Source: Planctomycetota bacterium (lineage in GTDB: Bacteria > Planctomycetota > GCA-002687715 > DRQF01). From it: a stretch of DNA of 64,000 nt. The DNA is taken from assembly GCA_036479435.1 (NCBI GenBank), contig JAZGFI010000017.1, forward strand, positions 1-64,000, in the 5' to 3' direction. The position numbers were made by a program, and so were the translations under genes. The notes beneath the pieces are model-generated. The model was not told the DNA's origin. It ran no database searches and saw only the letters and a program-made list of their open reading frames with translations. Below, one piece after another: positions 11,243 to 19,392 of the stretch; position 1 is the first letter of the stretch; each line of letters opens with the position of its first letter.

Positions 11243-13207
11243 ATGAAAATCTCATGCTACATCGTGATGGTGTGTGCCCTGTCAACGGCCTCTTCTTGCA
11301 CCGACGGCAGGTCAGACGCGACGATTGTTTTCAACTCGGCGCCAACGCTGAGTTCGATCGGAAACCAATTGACGCAAGAGACAAGGACGATGAGTCTGAG
11401 CCTAGACGCGTCCGATGACGACGTGGACGATAGTCTGAGTTTCAGCGTCATGCCTATGCTGTCGTTTGCGAATTTGACTGATAATGGCAACGGGACCGCA
11501 ACCTTGGATTTGACGCCACAAATTGGCGATCAGGGTGACTACGAAATGACGATTCGAGTGACGGATGATGCCAGCGATTCCAAGTTCAAGCAGGAGATCA
11601 TTCGGCTTGTCGTCGTCGACGTCAGTGCGATGCAGATTAGTGGAATCGTTTTGGACTCCGTGAACTTGCTGCCGGTCGCAGATGCGATCGTGACCCTACA
11701 AGCGACGACGACGCAAACGACGACAGCAGCGGACGGCAGTTACACGACCTATATTGATCCCGCGGCAAATGAAGTTCTTGTTGCCGCGAAAAGAGGCTTT
11801 TACAACGAGCCCATCGATACCCAAACAGGAGGCACCGCCTTCCTTATTCAGCTCAGGCCGGTTCACGTTGGAAACAACGTCAACTACCAGTTTCTCGATC
11901 CCCTGCTCTGTGCCGTTTGCCATCCGAACCAAGTGAGCGAGTGGCAAAACTCCATCATGGCCAAGGCTGGCCAGAACATGTGGATGCACGACGTCTACGC
12001 TGGCAACGGCACTCCCGGAGGCATGGGCGGCTTCGTGTACACGCGCGATTCTGTGTTCGCCGGCACGAACCCCGATTCGGTTTGCGCTTCTTGCCATCAG
12101 CCTGAGGCGTGGATTGCCGCAGGGTTTAGCGGCAGAGTCGAAGGACCAACCGACGCCAATTATCCCTCGCCGGCAACCGTCCATGGTGTTTCTTGCGAGA
12201 CCTGTCACAAGATCGCCAATGTCGACACGACCAAGATGAACTTCCCAGGGATTCTCCCCGAGTCGGTGACTTACAACCGACCGGAATTCGGAACGCAAGT
12301 GCAGTACGGCTTGCTGCCGGATGTTGGTTTTCAGTTGCCTGGCTTCATGCAGCCAACTTATCAGCCTCAGTTGGTTGCAGAAATATGCGGCACTTGTCAC
12401 CAAGACCAAACCGATATCAACCAAGATCACACGTTCATGGGCATTACCTCAGAGCCGACTTTCAAGGAGTGGAAAGAGTCGCCCTATGGCGACCCGAATT
12501 CCGGAATTTACCAGTCTTGTATCGACTGCCATATGCCACCGGCTGGACTCACCGAGATCTGCGTCAACGCACCCGTCACAAGAGACCCCAACACCATTCG
12601 TAGCCACGATATCCGGGGGACGAGCCCGGCCTACCTGGAGAACGCCGTTGACCTGACGATGCAAACTACAGTTGCCAATGGTCAGTTGAACGTCACGGTG
12701 GCCATCAACAACAGCATGACGGGTCATCACGTTCCGACCGGCGTGTCTTTACGCAACATGGTCCTTTTGGTCCAAGCTTGGGAAGACGGGCAGGACCCAC
12801 TCACAAATCCGCTAGCTCATATTGGATCTCAGACGATTCATGCTCTTGGCGGGATCGGTAACCCGGCCATGGGCTACTACTCCGGTCTTCCGGGGAAGCT
12901 CTTTGCCAAAGCGACCCGTGACATCAACAACCAAGGTCCGGTGTTTTTCACTGAGGCGACCGGCTTCATGTTTGACAATCGTATTCCCGCGTTGGGAACG
13001 GACACTACAAACTATGTCTTTGTCCTTCCTCAAACAGGCACTGGTACAATCAAGGTACGTGCCCGGCTCATCTACCGTCGTGCGTACCGTTTTTTCGTAG
13101 ATGCCAAAAACTGGACGACCGATGGTCACGGGAATCCGCTCGCGGATATCGCGGCCCCGCATTACGGACATCTGATGGAAGAAGCGACCGCGAACCTACC
13201 TTTCTAG
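11243..13207 (+). CDS. Pentaheme c-type cytochrome, putative lipoprotein with Ig/cadherin-like and carboxypeptidase-regulatory-like domains
   Basis: Five CxxCH motifs (CAVCH, CASCH, CETCH, CGTCH, CIDCH), a lipobox-like ASS|C, an N-terminal LTDNGNGTATL Ig-like repeat and a C-terminal GHHVPTG. Confidence 0.85.
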   Translation: MKISCYIVMVCALSTASSCTDGRSDATIVFNSAPTLSSIGNQLTQETRTMSLSLDASDDDVDDSLSFSVMPMLSFANLTDNGNGTATLDLTPQIGDQGDYEMTIRVTDDASDSKFKQEIIRLVVVDVSAMQISGIVLDSVNLLPVADAIVTLQATTTQTTTAADGSYTTYIDPAANEVLVAAKRGFYNEPIDTQTGGTAFLIQLRPVHVGNNVNYQFLDPLLCAVCHPNQVSEWQNSIMAKAGQNMWMHDVYAGNGTPGGMGGFVYTRDSVFAGTNPDSVCASCHQPEAWIAAGFSGRVEGPTDANYPSPATVHGVSCETCHKIANVDTTKMNFPGILPESVTYNRPEFGTQVQYGLLPDVGFQLPGFMQPTYQPQLVAEICGTCHQDQTDINQDHTFMGITSEPTFKEWKESPYGDPNSGIYQSCIDCHMPPAGLTEICVNAPVTRDPNTIRSHDIRGTSPAYLENAVDLTMQTTVANGQLNVTVAINNSMTGHHVPTGVSLRNMVLLVQAWEDGQDPLTNPLAHIGSQTIHALGGIGNPAMGYYSGLPGKLFAKATRDINNQGPVFFTEATGFMFDNRIPALGTDTTNYVFVLPQTGTGTIKVRARLIYRRAYRFFVDAKNWTTDGHGNPLADIAAPHYGHLMEEATANLPF

Positions 13208-13261
13208 GCTCAGTTCGCTCCCCACAGCGCGAGGTTGCACGACTTAGAGTTCGAATCCTGT

Positions 13262-13315
13262 TGCCCATCGGAAGAGGCTTCTAGGTGCGTAGTCGGTCTA
13301 CAATTTCTCGCTCGT
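13262..13315 (-). repeat. Displaced 54-bp copy of part of the tmRNA 3' region
   Basis: 53/54 identical to 19075-19128 in the same orientation. The single mismatch is 13284 G vs 19097 C. Confidence 0.95.
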
Positions 13316-13390
13316 GGAAATTACAGAAGAATTGTTGCGTCATTCCGGCGGCCGGATCCGGGTTTCGATGATGCGATTGATACTCGCCGA

Positions 13391-15547
13391 TCAACGACGC
13401 TCCGCGCGAAGCGAGATCCGTCGGCGCTCACGATCGATGTCGTCCACGACGACCCTCAGGCGATCGCCGAGGTGAACCAGCTCGGCCGGTTCGTGAACGC
13501 GACGCCAAAAGGCGCTCTTGTGCACCAGGCCGTCCTGGTGGACGCCGATGTCGACGAAGGCACCAAAGGCCGTGACATTGGTGACGACTCCCTCGAGCTC
13601 CATCCCTATCTCGACGTCGTCGATCGAGGTGACGTCGTCGCGGAACTGCGGGGGCTCGAAGGTGTTGCGAGGATCGCGGCCGGGACGTTTTAGCTCGTCG
13701 ACGATGTCCCGGAGGGTGGGCTCGCCGATTCCCTCGGCGACGTATCGGTCGACTTCAATGCTGGCCGCGAGCTCGTCATCGCCGACGAGGTCTTCCACGA
13801 GGACGCCGGCATCCTTCGCCATGCGACGGACCAGCCCATAGCGCTCGGGATGCACCGAGGAATGATCGAGAGGCTCGGCGCTGGCCGCGACGCGAAGGAA
13901 GCCGGCCGCCTGCTCGTAAGTGCGCTTGCCGATTCCCTTGACCTCAGACAGAGATGCGCGGGACGGAAACATTCCGTGGGCTTCGCGATGAGCCACGATG
14001 CGCGTGGCGAGGGTCGGACCGATTCCCGCGACGTGAGAGAGAAGCGAGGTGCTGGCCGTGTTGAGTTCGACGCCGACCCGGTTGACGCAAGTCTCGACGA
14101 CGTCGCCGAGCTTTTTTTCCAGCAAGGGTTGGTGGACGTCGTGCTGATACTGTCCCACGCCAATCGACTTCGGATCGACTTTCACCAGCTCGGACAGTGG
14201 GTCCTGCAATCGACGAGCGATCGAGATCGCACCGCGGATCGTCAGATCGAGATTGGGGAATTCCTCGCGGGCAATGTCGGAAGCGCTGTACACGCTCGCC
14301 CCGGTTTCGCTGACACTCAGGACGATCGTATCGGCGTGCTTCGTCTCGCGGATTGTGTCGCGCACGAAGGACTCGGTCTCTCGACCGGCCGTGCCGTTGC
14401 CCACGGCGATAGCATCCGCTGAATGAGCCGCGACGAAGGCTCTTAACTTCTGTTTAGCTTCGTCCAGTCCTCGCGCTCCCTGGTGCGGGAAAACCGTGAT
14501 TGTCGCTCGGTAGCGCCCGGAGTCGTCAATGGCGACGCACTTACAACCGCTGCGAAACCCCGGATCAATCCCGATGACGGATCGGGTGCCGAAGGGCGCC
14601 TCCAGCAGCAGGTGCCCTAAGTTGTCGGCGAAGATCCGCGCGGCGGCAGCGTCGGCCTTCTCTTTCAGGCCCGCCATGACCTCGGTTTCGACGGCGCGCT
14701 TCAGCCGCGAGGACCACGCGTCCTTGACGGCTTCTTGCAGATGCTCGGCATAGGGCGATTGATTGTCGATGTCCGAGCGACGCGCGATGAAATCGAGGGT
14801 TCGCTCGCGATCGAGAGACATGCGAAGGTCGAGCACGCCTTGCTCCGCGCCGCGACGCAGAGCGAGGAATCGATGGGAAGGGATACCGTGGACCGATTCC
14901 GTATGACCGTCGTAGTCATCGAAAGGAGTCCTCTTGTCCCCGGCCTTCTTGGACCTCTTCGCTCCGATTTCCCCGTTGCGAATGTAAGCCGCACGCAGGT
15001 CGCGGCGAAGGTCGGCTCGGCAGGCGATTCGGTCGACGACGATGTCTCGGGCCCCCGCAAGGGCGGCATCGGTCGACGGGACTCCTCTCGATGTGTCGAC
15101 GAACCGTGCCGCATCCGCGATCGGATTGCCACCGTGAGGCTGCTTTAGGAGTCTCATGGCCAAGGGCTCGAGTCCGCGCTCGATCGCCTCGGTGGCCTTT
15201 GAGCGACGCTTGGGCTTGTGGGGGAGATAGAAGTCTTCGAGTTCTTGTTTGTTGAGGCATGCATTTAGGCGGCGCTCGAGATCGGCCGTAAGCAAACCGA
15301 GTTCATTCATCTGCCCACGAATCGTCTCGCGGCGCGCTTCAAGTAATTGAACACGATCTCGACTCTCGAACAGGGCCCGAATGCCAACCTCGTCGAGGCC
15401 TCGCGTGCGTTCCTTGCGATAGCGAGCAATAAACGGGACCGTCGCTCCTTCATCGGCCATCTCGAGCACGGCCTTGACGATGCCGAGGTCGATACCGGTC
15501 TCCGCGGCGACGGCGGCGGTGAGTTGTTCCAACGAGATGTCGCTCAT
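13391..15547 (-). CDS. tex: Tex-family RNA-binding transcription accessory protein
   Basis: GATVPFIARYRKE, GIDPGFRSGCK, ARRLQDPLSELVK, IGVGQYQHD and a C-terminal S1 domain. Start moved to ATG 15547 (AGGA upstream). Confidence 0.95.
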   Translation of the reverse strand: MSDISLEQLTAAVAAETGIDLGIVKAVLEMADEGATVPFIARYRKERTRGLDEVGIRALFESRDRVQLLEARRETIRGQMNELGLLTADLERRLNACLNKQELEDFYLPHKPKRRSKATEAIERGLEPLAMRLLKQPHGGNPIADAARFVDTSRGVPSTDAALAGARDIVVDRIACRADLRRDLRAAYIRNGEIGAKRSKKAGDKRTPFDDYDGHTESVHGIPSHRFLALRRGAEQGVLDLRMSLDRERTLDFIARRSDIDNQSPYAEHLQEAVKDAWSSRLKRAVETEVMAGLKEKADAAAARIFADNLGHLLLEAPFGTRSVIGIDPGFRSGCKCVAIDDSGRYRATITVFPHQGARGLDEAKQKLRAFVAAHSADAIAVGNGTAGRETESFVRDTIRETKHADTIVLSVSETGASVYSASDIAREEFPNLDLTIRGAISIARRLQDPLSELVKVDPKSIGVGQYQHDVHQPLLEKKLGDVVETCVNRVGVELNTASTSLLSHVAGIGPTLATRIVAHREAHGMFPSRASLSEVKGIGKRTYEQAAGFLRVAASAEPLDHSSVHPERYGLVRRMAKDAGVLVEDLVGDDELAASIEVDRYVAEGIGEPTLRDIVDELKRPGRDPRNTFEPPQFRDDVTSIDDVEIGMELEGVVTNVTAFGAFVDIGVHQDGLVHKSAFWRRVHEPAELVHLGDRLRVVVDDIDRERRRISLRAERR

Positions 15548-15836
15548 CGAGTGATCCTGTTTGTCTTGGGATATTGGAGGGCTGATTCTAAGAATTGAAT
15601 GGCTCCAGTCCATGTGTAAACAGAGGCAAGCGTCGAACGCTTGCCCCGAATCTGAGTGTCTTGACCTTCCCGTGAAAGACCCGGCCGAGAATCGAGTCTC
15701 GGTCGCGGTGAAGAAACTGTGGTCCTTCTCCGCAGGGGAAAGCCTCGACGATTTACTGAGTGATCTACGCTGCGCTCATGGCTTCTGACCTCGGATATTC
15801 GTGAGGATCAGGTAGGTGGTGACGCGGTAAAGGAGC

Positions 15837-18725
15837 TCAGTCGAAAAAAACCTGGCAAAAAGGGCGCAGCCCCAAGAAGTTGCAGCGCTGCTCCTCGGGG
15901 TAGCTGATCCTGCCGGCCACGCGGGCGTTGATGGCGGTGTAGTCGAAGCCGCCGCCACGGGACACACGGAGGGAGGAGCCTGTTTTCGTCGAGGTCCATT
16001 CCCAAACGTTGCCTAAGACGTCGAAAAGGCCGAAGGAGTTGGCTCTGAATTTTCCGACCGGGGCATGAATGATGAAGTTGTCTTTGCACAAGGACTCAAA
16101 AGCCCCGAAAATCCCTTTGCACTCAAGACCAGCAATGTTGCCCCAATCAGCGATGCCCTTGATCGCACCCGTGTCACCAACCCAAATCGACGACGTGCCG
16201 GCACGAGCCGCGTATTCCCATTGATCTTCTCTGGATAGTCCAAGCCCAACGCGCCCCAATACTGTCGTGCACATCGTCCAAGAAACCCGCTCCACTGGAT
16301 TGAGCAAGCTGACCTGGCCTTTGTGACCCTCGTAGCTCCAGCCAACTCCATAGTTACTCGGACTCTTCAGAGCCGACGGAGACCTCATCCACTGCCCCTG
16401 GGTCATCTCGTACTTGGACAAAAAGAAAGGCTCTGTGATGTCGACTTCGCGCAACTTCTCATCTGTTCGTGATTGGGGATCGAAATTCTGACCTTTGGGA
16501 TCCGTTTTCTGCGATCCCATCCAAAACTTCCCCTTGGGGATCAACACTAAGATGATGCCCGTCTCTCCGGTCATGGCGATCTTTCCATCGCTATTCCGTT
16601 CGGGGATGTCGCCTTCGTGCGTCTCCAGGTGCAAAAACTCAAAGAGTTTAGACTCCGGGTCCATGCCCAGGGGGATCAGCCCAAGTTGCGGATTCAATAT
16701 CAGGCCATCGTACTTGTCCGAAGACTTGATGGTGGCCGTGGTCTTGTCCCAAAGTGCCTGATGGTCGGCGATGGTTCTCTTCGCAATCGTCTGAGCGGCC
16801 ACGAGTCGCGATTGTACGTCAGAGTAAACCCCAGTTTCTTTTTCAACAAATGTCCTGAGACCCTCTACCAATTCCGAAGCCACTTCGTGCTTCCACTGCT
16901 TCACATCATCGTCGCCGAAGTTCCAAGAGATTTGCTCTGCGGTCTTCGCCTCAAGGTCGGCAATGTTTTTTTTGGTCTTGTCGATGTTCTCTTGAACTTT
17001 GACCTTGGCTGCGGCATCGCTTGCTTTGGCGAGGTCAGCCTCAGCCTTTTTGAGCGACTCGGCGAGGGTCCCAATCCGCGTCAAGGTAACGGCATGGTCA
17101 CGCAAGCGCTCTTCTTCGGTGTAGGGAGCAGAACCGCGTCGCAAACCCGCCAAGTAGGCTTCGTGATTGGGAAGCGCCTCGTTGAGAGGCTCGTACTTTA
17201 CAATCCAAGCTTTGAGCGCCTCAATCTTTTTTGGTCGGGCTGGCCAAAGAACTTCAGCCAACGCCGTGGCTTGTTGAAGTTTCTTGATGTCCGCTAAGCG
17301 CTCAACTTCGAAGAGAGCCCAGGTCTTCGCCTGCCGTTCTCTTTTTTCGGCGGCCAAAGCGGTTGTCTTTTCTCCAAGCGCTTTTGTTTCGCGTTCGAGA
17401 GCAATCGACTTTTGCTTGGATTCATCCGCTGCCAAGTTGCGGGCCGTTTGGGCCTCGTCGCGAGCATCCTCAGCATCCTTCTTCGCTATCAGAGCCTTGT
17501 CGCGAGACTGTCTTGCTTCCTCCCCTTTGAAGTAGAAAACCCCAAGAGCTGAAGACAAAGCGATGAACACCGCGAGGCTCGCGGTGGCGACGATTGGGTT
17601 TCTTTGAACCCAGCGTACCGCCTTGACCCAGGGGCCGGCCGGTCGGGCGTGGACGGGCTCAAACTCGCGAAAGCGTCTGAGGTCTTGAGCAAACTCCAAG
17701 GCAGTGGCGTAGCGCCGGTTTCTGTCTTTGTCCATCGCGGTCAAAATGATGGCAGCGAGATCCTTCGGGATCTTGGGGTTGATCGACCGGGGGTTAGGCG
17801 GTTCTTGCTGCGAGATGGCCTGGTAGAGTTCTTGCCGGTTGGCACCCAAAAAGGGCCTTCTCAAGGTGCAAGACTCGAACAGGGCGACACCCAGGGAGTA
17901 GATGTCGGTTCGCCGATCAAGCTTAAGTCGATGAGCCAAAAGTTGCTCGGGTGACATGTAAGCTGGGGTGCCCATCAAATCTCCTGACTGCGTCAAGGTC
18001 ATCGCGTCGGACTCTTCATCTTTTGCAAGGCCGAAGTCAAGTACACAGGCAGATCCGTCTTCCCGTACCATGAGATTGGCGGGCTTGATATCCCGATGAA
18101 TAAGGCCCACTTCATGAGCGGCGTGAAGGGCCCGGGCGGCGCTTTCGATGTAGCGCACGGCACTCATCACGGCGTCGCGGTCGGCGCTCGATTTGCCGCT
18201 GGAGCTTGCGGCGGAACTCTTCTTGGTTTCTGTTTCGATTTCTTCGGAAAAGCTGATGTGCAATTCGCTGACGTCGTCGCCAGCGGATACTTGCTCACCG
18301 GTTTCGCTGATGTGGTCGGCGAGGTTTTTTCCCGTGACGTATTCAAAGGCGATGAACGACAAGCCGTCGTGCTCGCCGATCTCATAGACTCGGGCGATGC
18401 CAGAATGATCCAGCTTGCTCGCCGCTTCTGCCTCGCGTTCGAAACGCAGCCGCGCGGAACTTGACATGCGACTGGATTCCAAGAGAACTTTCAATGCGAC
18501 TTGGCGGTGGAGCTTTTCATCTTCTGCGAGGTAAACATATCCCTGCCCGCCGTGCCCTAGCTCCTCCAGTAATCGGTAGTGACCAATACGAAGCCCCCTG
18601 AGGCCCAACTGCAAGGCCTTGGGATCTGAGTGAGCCGAGTCATCGGAATCCGATGCGGCACTTAGCTGGGTCGATTCATGATCATCGCGGTTAATGGGAG
18701 TGGTTGCCTCGTCGTCTTTGCTCAT
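15837..18725 (-). CDS. Ser/Thr kinase - TM - coiled coil - FGE-sulfatase (SUMF1/CLec-fold) domain protein
   Basis: Kinase motifs GHGGQG, HRDIKPAN, DFG and GTPAYMSPE. TM PIVATASLAVFIALSSALGVFYF. FGE motifs FWMGS, SKYEMTQGQW, PVERVSW, QWEYAARAG, NSFGLFDVLGNVWEW and RVSRGGGF...LGLRP. Confidence 0.92.
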   Translation of the reverse strand: MSKDDEATTPINRDDHESTQLSAASDSDDSAHSDPKALQLGLRGLRIGHYRLLEELGHGGQGYVYLAEDEKLHRQVALKVLLESSRMSSSARLRFEREAEAASKLDHSGIARVYEIGEHDGLSFIAFEYVTGKNLADHISETGEQVSAGDDVSELHISFSEEIETETKKSSAASSSGKSSADRDAVMSAVRYIESAARALHAAHEVGLIHRDIKPANLMVREDGSACVLDFGLAKDEESDAMTLTQSGDLMGTPAYMSPEQLLAHRLKLDRRTDIYSLGVALFESCTLRRPFLGANRQELYQAISQQEPPNPRSINPKIPKDLAAIILTAMDKDRNRRYATALEFAQDLRRFREFEPVHARPAGPWVKAVRWVQRNPIVATASLAVFIALSSALGVFYFKGEEARQSRDKALIAKKDAEDARDEAQTARNLAADESKQKSIALERETKALGEKTTALAAEKRERQAKTWALFEVERLADIKKLQQATALAEVLWPARPKKIEALKAWIVKYEPLNEALPNHEAYLAGLRRGSAPYTEEERLRDHAVTLTRIGTLAESLKKAEADLAKASDAAAKVKVQENIDKTKKNIADLEAKTAEQISWNFGDDDVKQWKHEVASELVEGLRTFVEKETGVYSDVQSRLVAAQTIAKRTIADHQALWDKTTATIKSSDKYDGLILNPQLGLIPLGMDPESKLFEFLHLETHEGDIPERNSDGKIAMTGETGIILVLIPKGKFWMGSQKTDPKGQNFDPQSRTDEKLREVDITEPFFLSKYEMTQGQWMRSPSALKSPSNYGVGWSYEGHKGQVSLLNPVERVSWTMCTTVLGRVGLGLSREDQWEYAARAGTSSIWVGDTGAIKGIADWGNIAGLECKGIFGAFESLCKDNFIIHAPVGKFRANSFGLFDVLGNVWEWTSTKTGSSLRVSRGGGFDYTAINARVAGRISYPEEQRCNFLGLRPFCQVFFD

Positions 18726-18909
18726 GGTCGCCTCTTTGAGTCAGACGCGCATTACACACGATCCGGCGATTTGACGCAAGAATCGCGTTTCCTCACCGTT
18801 GTCCGGTGTCGGTTCATTAATGGGGTTGACGCCGAAACGCGGCGCGGCCGACCCCAACTAAGTGCCGGTTCGAAGGCTAGGTGTCAAGGAGCGGGTGCGG
18901 CAGGAACTG

Positions 18910-19045
18910 CCCTTCGATTCGCTGCCGTTCGACTCGCTTCGCTCGCTCAGGGCTCCATTCGACTAAGTGGCTTGGCTCAGTTAAGGCCTGCCATGAGCGA
19001 GACCGCGTAGGACTCTTTGGAGTCCTACGCGATCGAGTCGAATGG
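18910..19045. repeat. Cluster of REP-like palindromic units downstream of tmRNA
   Basis: Units share a TTCGACT...GCTCA core: partial 18910-18924, full 18924-18953, variant 18955-18980, and an inverted unit at 18990-19045 enclosing the perfect hairpin CGCGTAGGACTC-TTTG-GAGTCCTACGCG (19004-19031). Confidence 0.7.
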
Positions 19046-19392
19046 AGGCGGCGGGAATCGAACCCGCGTCCCGATGCCCATCGGAAGAGGCTTCTACGTG
19101 CGTAGTCGGTCTACAATTTCTCGCTCGTTTGGCCCCCAACCGACAGGGTGCCGAACTCGCATACTTCACTGCTCTTATCCGCCGTCGCAGAAGTGGACTT
19201 CAACGGACCAGCCCGCTGGTGTTACGTCACTACAAACGCGCAGGCGAAGTTTGCGGTGACGGGCGCTAATTAAGCGGCCAGTGCGTAGTTGTTATTGGCA
19301 ACTAAAGTTTTCCAGGCGGTTTTAAGAGGATGCCCGGAACCTCTGCACGCCACCCCAACGTCATAAAGCCCGGTCGAAACCGAATCGCCCCC
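19043..19392 (-). ncRNA. ssrA: tmRNA (tag peptide ANNNYALAA*, 19299-19270)
   Basis: 5' GGGGGCGATTCGGTTTCGAC and 3' GGGTTCGATTCCCGCCGCCTCC-A, acceptor stem GGGGGCG/CGCCTCC, tag ORF ending ALAA, adjacent to smpB. CCA is not encoded. Confidence 0.97.

Follow-up and report, generated by a model that had tools for sequence, protein, structure and literature searches.

A planctomycete kinase-FGE gene with a diversity-generating retroelement variable region, probably frozen by loss of its cassette

Diversity-generating retroelements (DGRs) rewrite a target gene through error-prone reverse transcription of a template RNA. This study concerns a kinase-FGE gene in a 64-kb stretch of planctomycete DNA (contig JAZGFI010000017.1, positions 1 to 64,000; this whole stretch is called the window throughout), the 3' end of which is almost certainly a DGR variable region (VR) that very probably is no longer rewritten. 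Clade-5 DGRs of cyanobacteria include Ser/Thr kinase and CLec targets, remote targets, and remnant VRs without a nearby reverse transcriptase (RT), such as Nostoc all3226 (PMC7517822). The present gene resembles these in combining kinase and CLec domains and in carrying a remnant VR, but it comes from a planctomycete, has a long coiled-coil or helical stalk after one transmembrane (TM) helix, has no matching template that could be found in its genome, and lies beside a physical scar at the likely site of loss.

Two further systems are informative. HRDC-containing DGRs of Architecture C, the Treponema denticola TvpA type, have non-adjacent targets, a remote target being recognized by differing from a template of the same genome through A-to-N changes only (PMC5758913). 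In a planctomycete relative of the same family but another genus (G002; the genome of the window is G000), the cassette likewise has HRDC, plus Avd, and its targets are multiple and scattered, whilst TvpA is the top structural match (tied with PvdO) of the domain described here. In contrast to the TvpA type, the present VR differs from the templates of its own genome by more than A-to-N changes, and its target is a predicted membrane kinase. The DGRs of Thiohalocapsa PB-PSB1 are viewed as putative antigen sensors of multicellular bacteria, with planctomycetes named among the hosts (PMC10907252). There, as here, several DGR loci occur in one genome, targets join kinase, NACHT or caspase domains to CLec, insertion sequence (IS) remnants lie at DGR loci, and some loci are incomplete; one target in Thiohalocapsa, that of DGR 1, is invariant. 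A resident template matching DGR 1 persists there, and the other broken loci have intact population variants; neither was found for the present gene.

Judged by its sequence, the kinase-FGE gene is a descendant of the clade of HRDC/Avd DGR targets and would work as they do. Kinase-CLec targets and remnant VRs have already been published, and no new mechanism is revealed. No description of this locus, or of an orphan kinase-CLec VR in a planctomycete, was found in the literature, although the supplementary target tables of the four papers cited here may list such cases. What the locus offers is a clean, datable DGR target without machinery, with a template that can be read from a relative and a break point visible within a few bases. 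This makes the idea that lineages diversify, select and then drop the cassette, raised in PMC7517822, testable in one lineage. Orphan targets of this kind are missed by DGR surveys anchored on RTs, a limit stated in PMC8144416.

Variable region and its template in a relative

The 3' end of the kinase-FGE gene matched 11 of 60 other genomes, and only G002 matched across the whole candidate. G002 has two HRDC-Avd-RT-template cassettes (L031 and L033), one of which lies in cis behind a kinase-FGE gene, with HRDC, bAvd-like (E=9e-18) and RVT_1 domains. The L033 template (L033:8107-7981) is non-coding and reads, in the frame of the target, SSNRVNRGGSFNNTAINARVANRNNNTEEQRNNNLGLRPFC. The VR, which ends 16 nt before the end of the gene, aligns to it without gaps, with 100 of 127 nt identical. 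Template adenines are changed at 17 of 33 positions as against 10 of 94 for the other bases (Fisher p=4e-6), and all ten non-adenine differences are silent. At codon positions 1-2 mismatches fall at 17/33 adenines vs 1/52 non-adenines (p=5e-8), whereas in the FGE body upstream of the VR, which served as control, adenines and non-adenines mismatch alike (18/121 vs 48/309 and 28/135 vs 43/295).

All 12 AAY codons of the template are NNC in the gene, and ten of these encode a changed residue. At the same 12 sites, 141 of 144 residues in this protein and 11 close homologues are among the 15 kinds reachable from AAY, compared with 542 of 706 where the body of the domain varies; as the homologues are kin, several of them from G002, these are not 12 independent tests. 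Adenines likewise account for 11 of the 13 mismatches between the cis target of G002 and the template beside it, and the L033 template could in theory encode ~6e18 protein variants. Based on the adenine-specific mismatches to the template of a relative, the flat control in the domain body and the residue restriction among homologues, the 3' end of the gene can be assigned as a DGR VR with near certainty. An earlier note on this DNA had proposed as much for 15864..15980, close to the 15853-15979 found here. Its 14 NNC codons, listed as Asn or Ser positions of typical DGR templates, all fall on adenine-bearing codons of the L033 template; two further changed codons, CTC (Leu919) and CCC (Pro943), had been missed.

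That proposal drew on codon endings, and a recount agrees with its figures. In the window at 15864-15980 on the minus strand (GSSLRVSRGGGFDYTAINARVAGRISYPEEQRCNFLGLR), the third positions of the 39 codons are 28 C, 9 G, 2 T and 0 A, against 20 C, 7 G, 8 A and 4 T (12 A/T) in the 39 codons directly upstream. This is the C-richest 39-codon stretch of the gene, in which 350 of 963 codons end in C; at the gene's own rate, the count has P=7e-6 for a fixed stretch, this one having been chosen post hoc. Among 2489 long open reading frames (ORFs) of G000, a set chosen mechanically and including non-genes, 234 contain a 39-codon stretch with at least 28 C; in 74 of these it lies in the last 53 codons, and six of the 74 have a whole-ORF third-position C content of <=0.40. 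As 234 ORFs have such a stretch, the C count alone is only a hint, and third-position C-richness was rejected as proof of DGR origin.

These ORFs would also fit a tail that diverged like any other FGE/CLec sequence, under local codon bias and without a DGR, as would a kinase-FGE paralogue in which 33 of 39 tail codons end in C and for which no template was found in 23 genomes. Such an origin has next to no probability, given the mismatch pattern against a real non-coding template, which is absent in the domain body, the residue restriction in homologues and the homology of the flank to a cassette leader.

The paralogue itself (G000:C252:36337-39024, L086) is C-rich overall (0.48), and its tail is possibly another orphan VR; a template search in 23 genomes from the same order gave nothing but matches of 36-51 nt, to the conserved GNVWEW part. 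It is followed by one copy of a dispersed ~40-50-nt repeat, present in >20 copies on many contigs at 77-93% identity (e.g., G000:C190:10521-10570).

Several observations were made on related cassettes. The cis template of G002 carries a ~47-nt insertion (L031:8487-8437, G002:C45) without counterpart in its VR, so that this cassette, too, may be disabled. About 1 kb upstream of a kinase-FGE gene lies a detached piece resembling half a VR (L032:1261-1339, G002:C233), and G002 also has a third DGR RT with a different template family (L089:3910-4983 and L047, G002:C231). A JGI contig (L053:2-5381) holds a complete cis DGR of the same architecture, with kinase-FGE target, HRDC, Avd, RT and a more distant template.

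Predicted receptor kinase

Pfam assigns Pkinase (residues 50-340) and FGE-sulfatase (726-954) to the protein, and hydropathy shows a single hydrophobic segment (377-399). The AlphaFold2 (AF2) model of the whole protein (mean predicted local distance difference test, pLDDT, 85; predicted TM-score, pTM, 0.58) has a helix at 377-397, and a long helix and helical bundle (423-668) between the TM helix and the C-terminal domain. The catalytic motifs of the kinase are kept (Gly loop at 57, VALK at 76, HRDxKPxN at 210, DFG at 230), and PknB structures are the top fold matches of the kinase part. With these motifs and one TM helix between kinase and sensor, the protein is a Hanks-type (PknB-like) kinase on its predicted topology.

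A fold search with the whole protein gave only kinases among the matches listed, and the C-terminal domain was therefore folded alone (pLDDT 86.5). It matches the T. denticola lipoprotein TvpA (2y3c) with Z 25.4 and a root-mean-square deviation of 2.2 over 214 aligned residues. PvdO ties with this match, and the matches to TaqVP and Mtd have Z 12.5 each. In catalytic FGEs, an active-site cysteine pair follows the RGGS motif. No such pair was found after RGG in this domain, where the stretch reads GFDYTAINAR, and its sequence matches to true FGEs end before this stretch.

The likely identity of the protein is that of a receptor kinase bearing an outer binding domain, with topology, ligand and output predicted. 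The outer CLec domain of such a one-pass membrane receptor would bind a ligand and switch the PknB-like cytoplasmic kinase via the coiled-coil stalk, and a sensor role in cell-cell, host or phage recognition is probably to be expected. The earlier note had described a receptor kinase with a hypervariable ligand site diversified in trans; the VR does lie on a kinase-TM-FGE/CLec protein, with cellular location and ligand binding predicted, but the "in trans" part was not supported.

Table 1. Coordinates of features at the kinase-FGE locus (positions in the window)
Feature	Position	Strand	Basis
Kinase-TM-coiled coil/helical bundle-FGE/CLec gene, 962 aa, probable former DGR target	15837..18725	-	ORF, Pfam, AF2
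DGR VR (assigned with near certainty), residues 916-957, 127 nt	15853..15979	-	Match to G002 template
Gene end and 3' flank homologous to G002 leader between target and HRDC gene	15778..15852	-	Alignment with L031, L033
Decayed internal piece of multi-copy rve-type integrase/transposase gene	15654..15776	-	28/41 residues identical, two stops
60-nt copy (57/60 identical) of tmRNA positions 19069-19128	13256..13315	-	Sequence match
Transfer-messenger RNA (tmRNA) gene directly upstream of kinase gene	19043..19392	-	ARAGORN
Tex gene, inside islet, single copy in assembly, no shown DGR link	13391..15613	-	ORF

Resident DGRs and the search for a cognate cassette

The assembly of G000 (5.47 Mb, 299 contigs, 92% complete, with C17 the contig of the window) gave 17 RT matches, of which three are DGR-like, each adjoining a template different from the one sought. 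One DGR (G000:C190:66-4945) consists of Avd, RT and template with a convergent caspase-NACHT-FGE target. It has further VRs at C4:4408-4528 and C156:1645-1773, and a 127-nt overlap links C4, which carries an HRDC-like gene, to C190. The other two (C251/C157, L087) are alleles of one HRDC-like-RT-template cassette that share 93% identity and differ in their templates; they continue from the end of C17 and gave no Avd match. Their target is a kinase-Ig-like-FGE gene (C17:99841-102492; DGR locus C17:99841-102606), 86 kb from the VR studied here. The VR of that gene (C17:102357-102489) differs from the two templates at 17 positions (16 at adenines) and 15 positions (14 at adenines).

At both resident loci the RT looks intact and the differences between template and cognate VR are biased to adenines, and one locus is on the same contig, so that either might be thought to rewrite the VR at 15853-15979 despite a template mismatch. 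This is most improbable, as the resident templates differ from that VR at 35, 36 and 32 non-adenine positions; after retrohoming from one of them the VR would carry its non-adenine bases, and it does not.

No RT or template was found in the 64-kb window, as the earlier note had said. The near-identical non-coding copy beside a DGR RT that it expected was not found, since BLASTN of the G000 contigs gave no other copy of the VR. Neither did a gapless, adenine-tolerant scan of all G000 contigs, in which the best non-self matches were Lys-rich repeats with at least 25 non-adenine mismatches. Searched against G000, the G002 template matched the VR at 79%, the C251/C157 templates at 67-68% and nothing else. 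The best RT in G000 is that of C190, which is 55% identical to the RTs of G002 and has its own, different template, and the only Avd of the genome is also on C190. In the protein collection, 1966 RT relatives were present among 8000 scored candidates; the best 120 of these 1966 contain the cluster of three from G002 itself and then none above 63%, and only one of the 120, the C190 RT, lies on the 3,989,566-nt contig on which this kinase is also encoded.

Motif scans gave a similar picture, with the limit that the scanned contig collections may leave out records of G000. A joint VR/template motif had 0 matches in the metagenome contigs and two in the genome contigs, both from G002, and a template motif had 0 in the viral contigs. 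A 5'-motif scan of the metagenome contigs found two more distant templates, with 27 and 32 non-adenine mismatches to the VR. As regards what marks an active remote target, the searches of G000 apparently yield neither a same-genome template differing by A-to-N changes only nor a cognate RT or accessory protein for this VR.

Four sequencing runs from three studies contain the organism at 8-75x, and their contigs were compared, at 80% likeness, with the template and the RT of G002. A cognate template would be expected to lie closer to the G002 template than the VR does, at ~92-94% judging by the VR non-adenine sites. No template contig at the organism's depth was present in the four runs among the pieces listed; at that depth the list comprised a 45-nt piece of the C190 RT and, as positive control, the contig of the VR itself, with 19 differences over 95 nt. 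The VR showed no variant in the contigs of these four runs, which is a weak test as contigs drop rare variants. Three runs have one unbroken contig across the VR, and X7 covers 15906-15979 of it, with the window otherwise in pieces. The protein cluster of the kinase has one member, found on four contigs.

The proposal that the VR is diversified in trans is therefore not supported in view of the 32-36 non-adenine mismatches of the resident templates, the failure of four routes to find a cognate template or RT, the lack of a VR variant in contigs of the four runs, and a cassette-leader flank that ends at an IS fragment.

The remaining RT matches include the short contigs C34, C76, C100, C101 and C132, which resemble eukaryotic retrotransposons, with long gag-pol- or LINE-like frames on C34, C100 and C101. 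These contigs are probably host DNA binned into the assembly.

Flank scar, islet and present state of the variable region

The 75 nt of gene end and 3' flank beyond the VR are identical to the L031 leader at 53 of 75 positions without gaps, after which identity drops to 3/15 and 3/15. This homology breaks off within the left arm of a stem-loop that is predicted for the L033 leader; the L031 leader folded differently. A role for the initiation of mutagenic homing (IMH) site and a downstream stem-loop is known from the Bordetella DGR. In G000 the VR retains its match to the template at the 3' end, and an L033-type leader stem-loop is cut off, with the reservation that one of the two leaders folds so; a hairpin test of 3' flanks had a mixed outcome. 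Within 2 nt of the end of the leader homology begins the rve-type fragment, which occupies the place where G002 has the cassette. It has 83-88% DNA matches on C245, C276 and C36, and the full ORF on C245 contains rve_3, HTH_32 and HTH_21.

The gene, this scar and Tex form a 5.8-kb islet (13256-19128) bracketed by the tmRNA gene and its partial copy, as expected for a decayed island. The tmRNA gene is likely the integration site, and the partial copy is likely a displaced attachment-site fragment closing the islet. The tmRNA gene is followed by different genes in all five relatives examined, and the Tex gene in the islet has a GC content of 0.62 vs 0.56 for its neighbors; an integrase gene was not found within 13256-19128. 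Since the kinase is 69-70% identical to the genes of G002 whereas SmpB and Tex are 52% and 42% identical, comparison of these sequences suggests that the kinase gene was acquired by transfer.

In the history considered probable, the VR was written from a template of the G002 family and has been frozen since its own HRDC-Avd-RT-template cassette was deleted, leaving the IS fragment. The gene and its cis cassette would have arrived on the island at the tmRNA gene, error-prone reverse transcription of the template RNA would have rewritten ~20 codons of the binding face, and an IS-associated deletion would then have removed the cassette and cut the downstream stem-loop, so that the last VR variant was retained. 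The grounds for proposing a frozen state are that the searches gave neither a cognate template nor a cognate RT, that contigs of the four runs showed no variant of the VR, and that the flank homology stops at the IS fragment. Alternatively, this lineage may never have had a cis cassette, the gene having been transferred as an already detached target next to an unrelated IS fragment. The contrast in identity to G002 between the kinase, SmpB and Tex and the islet at tmRNA would fit this, but leader homology that stops within 2 nt of the fragment makes it very unlikely. The present state would be the same under cassette loss and detached arrival, and that the VR is now frozen, by either history, is very probable.

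Some findings weigh against a cassette lost from this site, or against a VR at rest. The VR has not decayed, with no amino acid change at non-adenine sites relative to the L033 template, and it differs from the VR of the G002 gene L034 at just 4 of 94 non-adenine sites. Four-fold sites compared with L034 are changed at 3/18 in the VR vs 181/279 in the gene body (p=7e-5), a contrast that is weaker against L031 (7/19 vs 67/112, p=0.08). Rewriting therefore continued until fairly recently, or templates moved between lineages. In addition, a missing cassette is possible in an assembly that is 92% complete in 299 contigs, as DGR cassettes assemble badly (the two-allele bubble of C251/C157 being an example). 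The search of run contigs filters some records, so that a gap there proves nothing, and two of the four runs may be the source of this DNA, with rare variants lost in contigs. Purifying selection can also hide DGR activity, according to PMC8144416. Synteny with the neighbors of the G002 cassettes was not found at the kinase locus, which leaves homology of the flank as the evidence for a former cis cassette, and the order of IS insertion and deletion is likewise a reconstruction.

These points bear most directly on an active remote target, with a cognate template and RT elsewhere, unassembled or in a subpopulation, that rewrite the VR in trans. An undecayed and recently refreshed VR and the missing 8% of the genome would agree with this, as would the several G002 kinase-FGE genes with template-like tails away from cassettes, and run X2 has pieces resembling the G002 cassette at 2.8x and 3.2x, compared with 75x. 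Intact-cassette subpopulations are described for Thiohalocapsa DGR 3 and 7 in PMC10907252. However, no template piece was seen at the organism's depth in the four runs, though the VR itself was detected at 80%, no close RT is present among the best 120 of 1966 relatives, and the contigs of the four runs hold no VR variant. X2 also has pieces at 2.6-6.2x that are ~80% like the kinase gene, and the low-depth cassette pieces are therefore more likely from another species. An unseen active cassette is accordingly quite unlikely, and is given any weight at all because 8% of the genome is missing and cassettes assemble poorly. Taking all routes together, continued activity of the VR in trans is unlikely.

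A broader possibility, speculative and on balance unlikely, is that planctomycete genera exchange DGR cassettes as portable template modules, which rewrite resident receptor kinases at their tips and are later excised by IS, locking a selected specificity in a host-associated lineage. If so, VRs across genera would be near-identical at non-adenine sites, as here, on genes near silent saturation and beside excision scars, and the frozen tip would record the ligand on which the symbiont settled.

Just outside the islet, at 11243-13207 of the window, lies a gene for a secreted protein that is a multiheme cytochrome c and also has cadherin-like and carboxypeptidase-regulatory domains.

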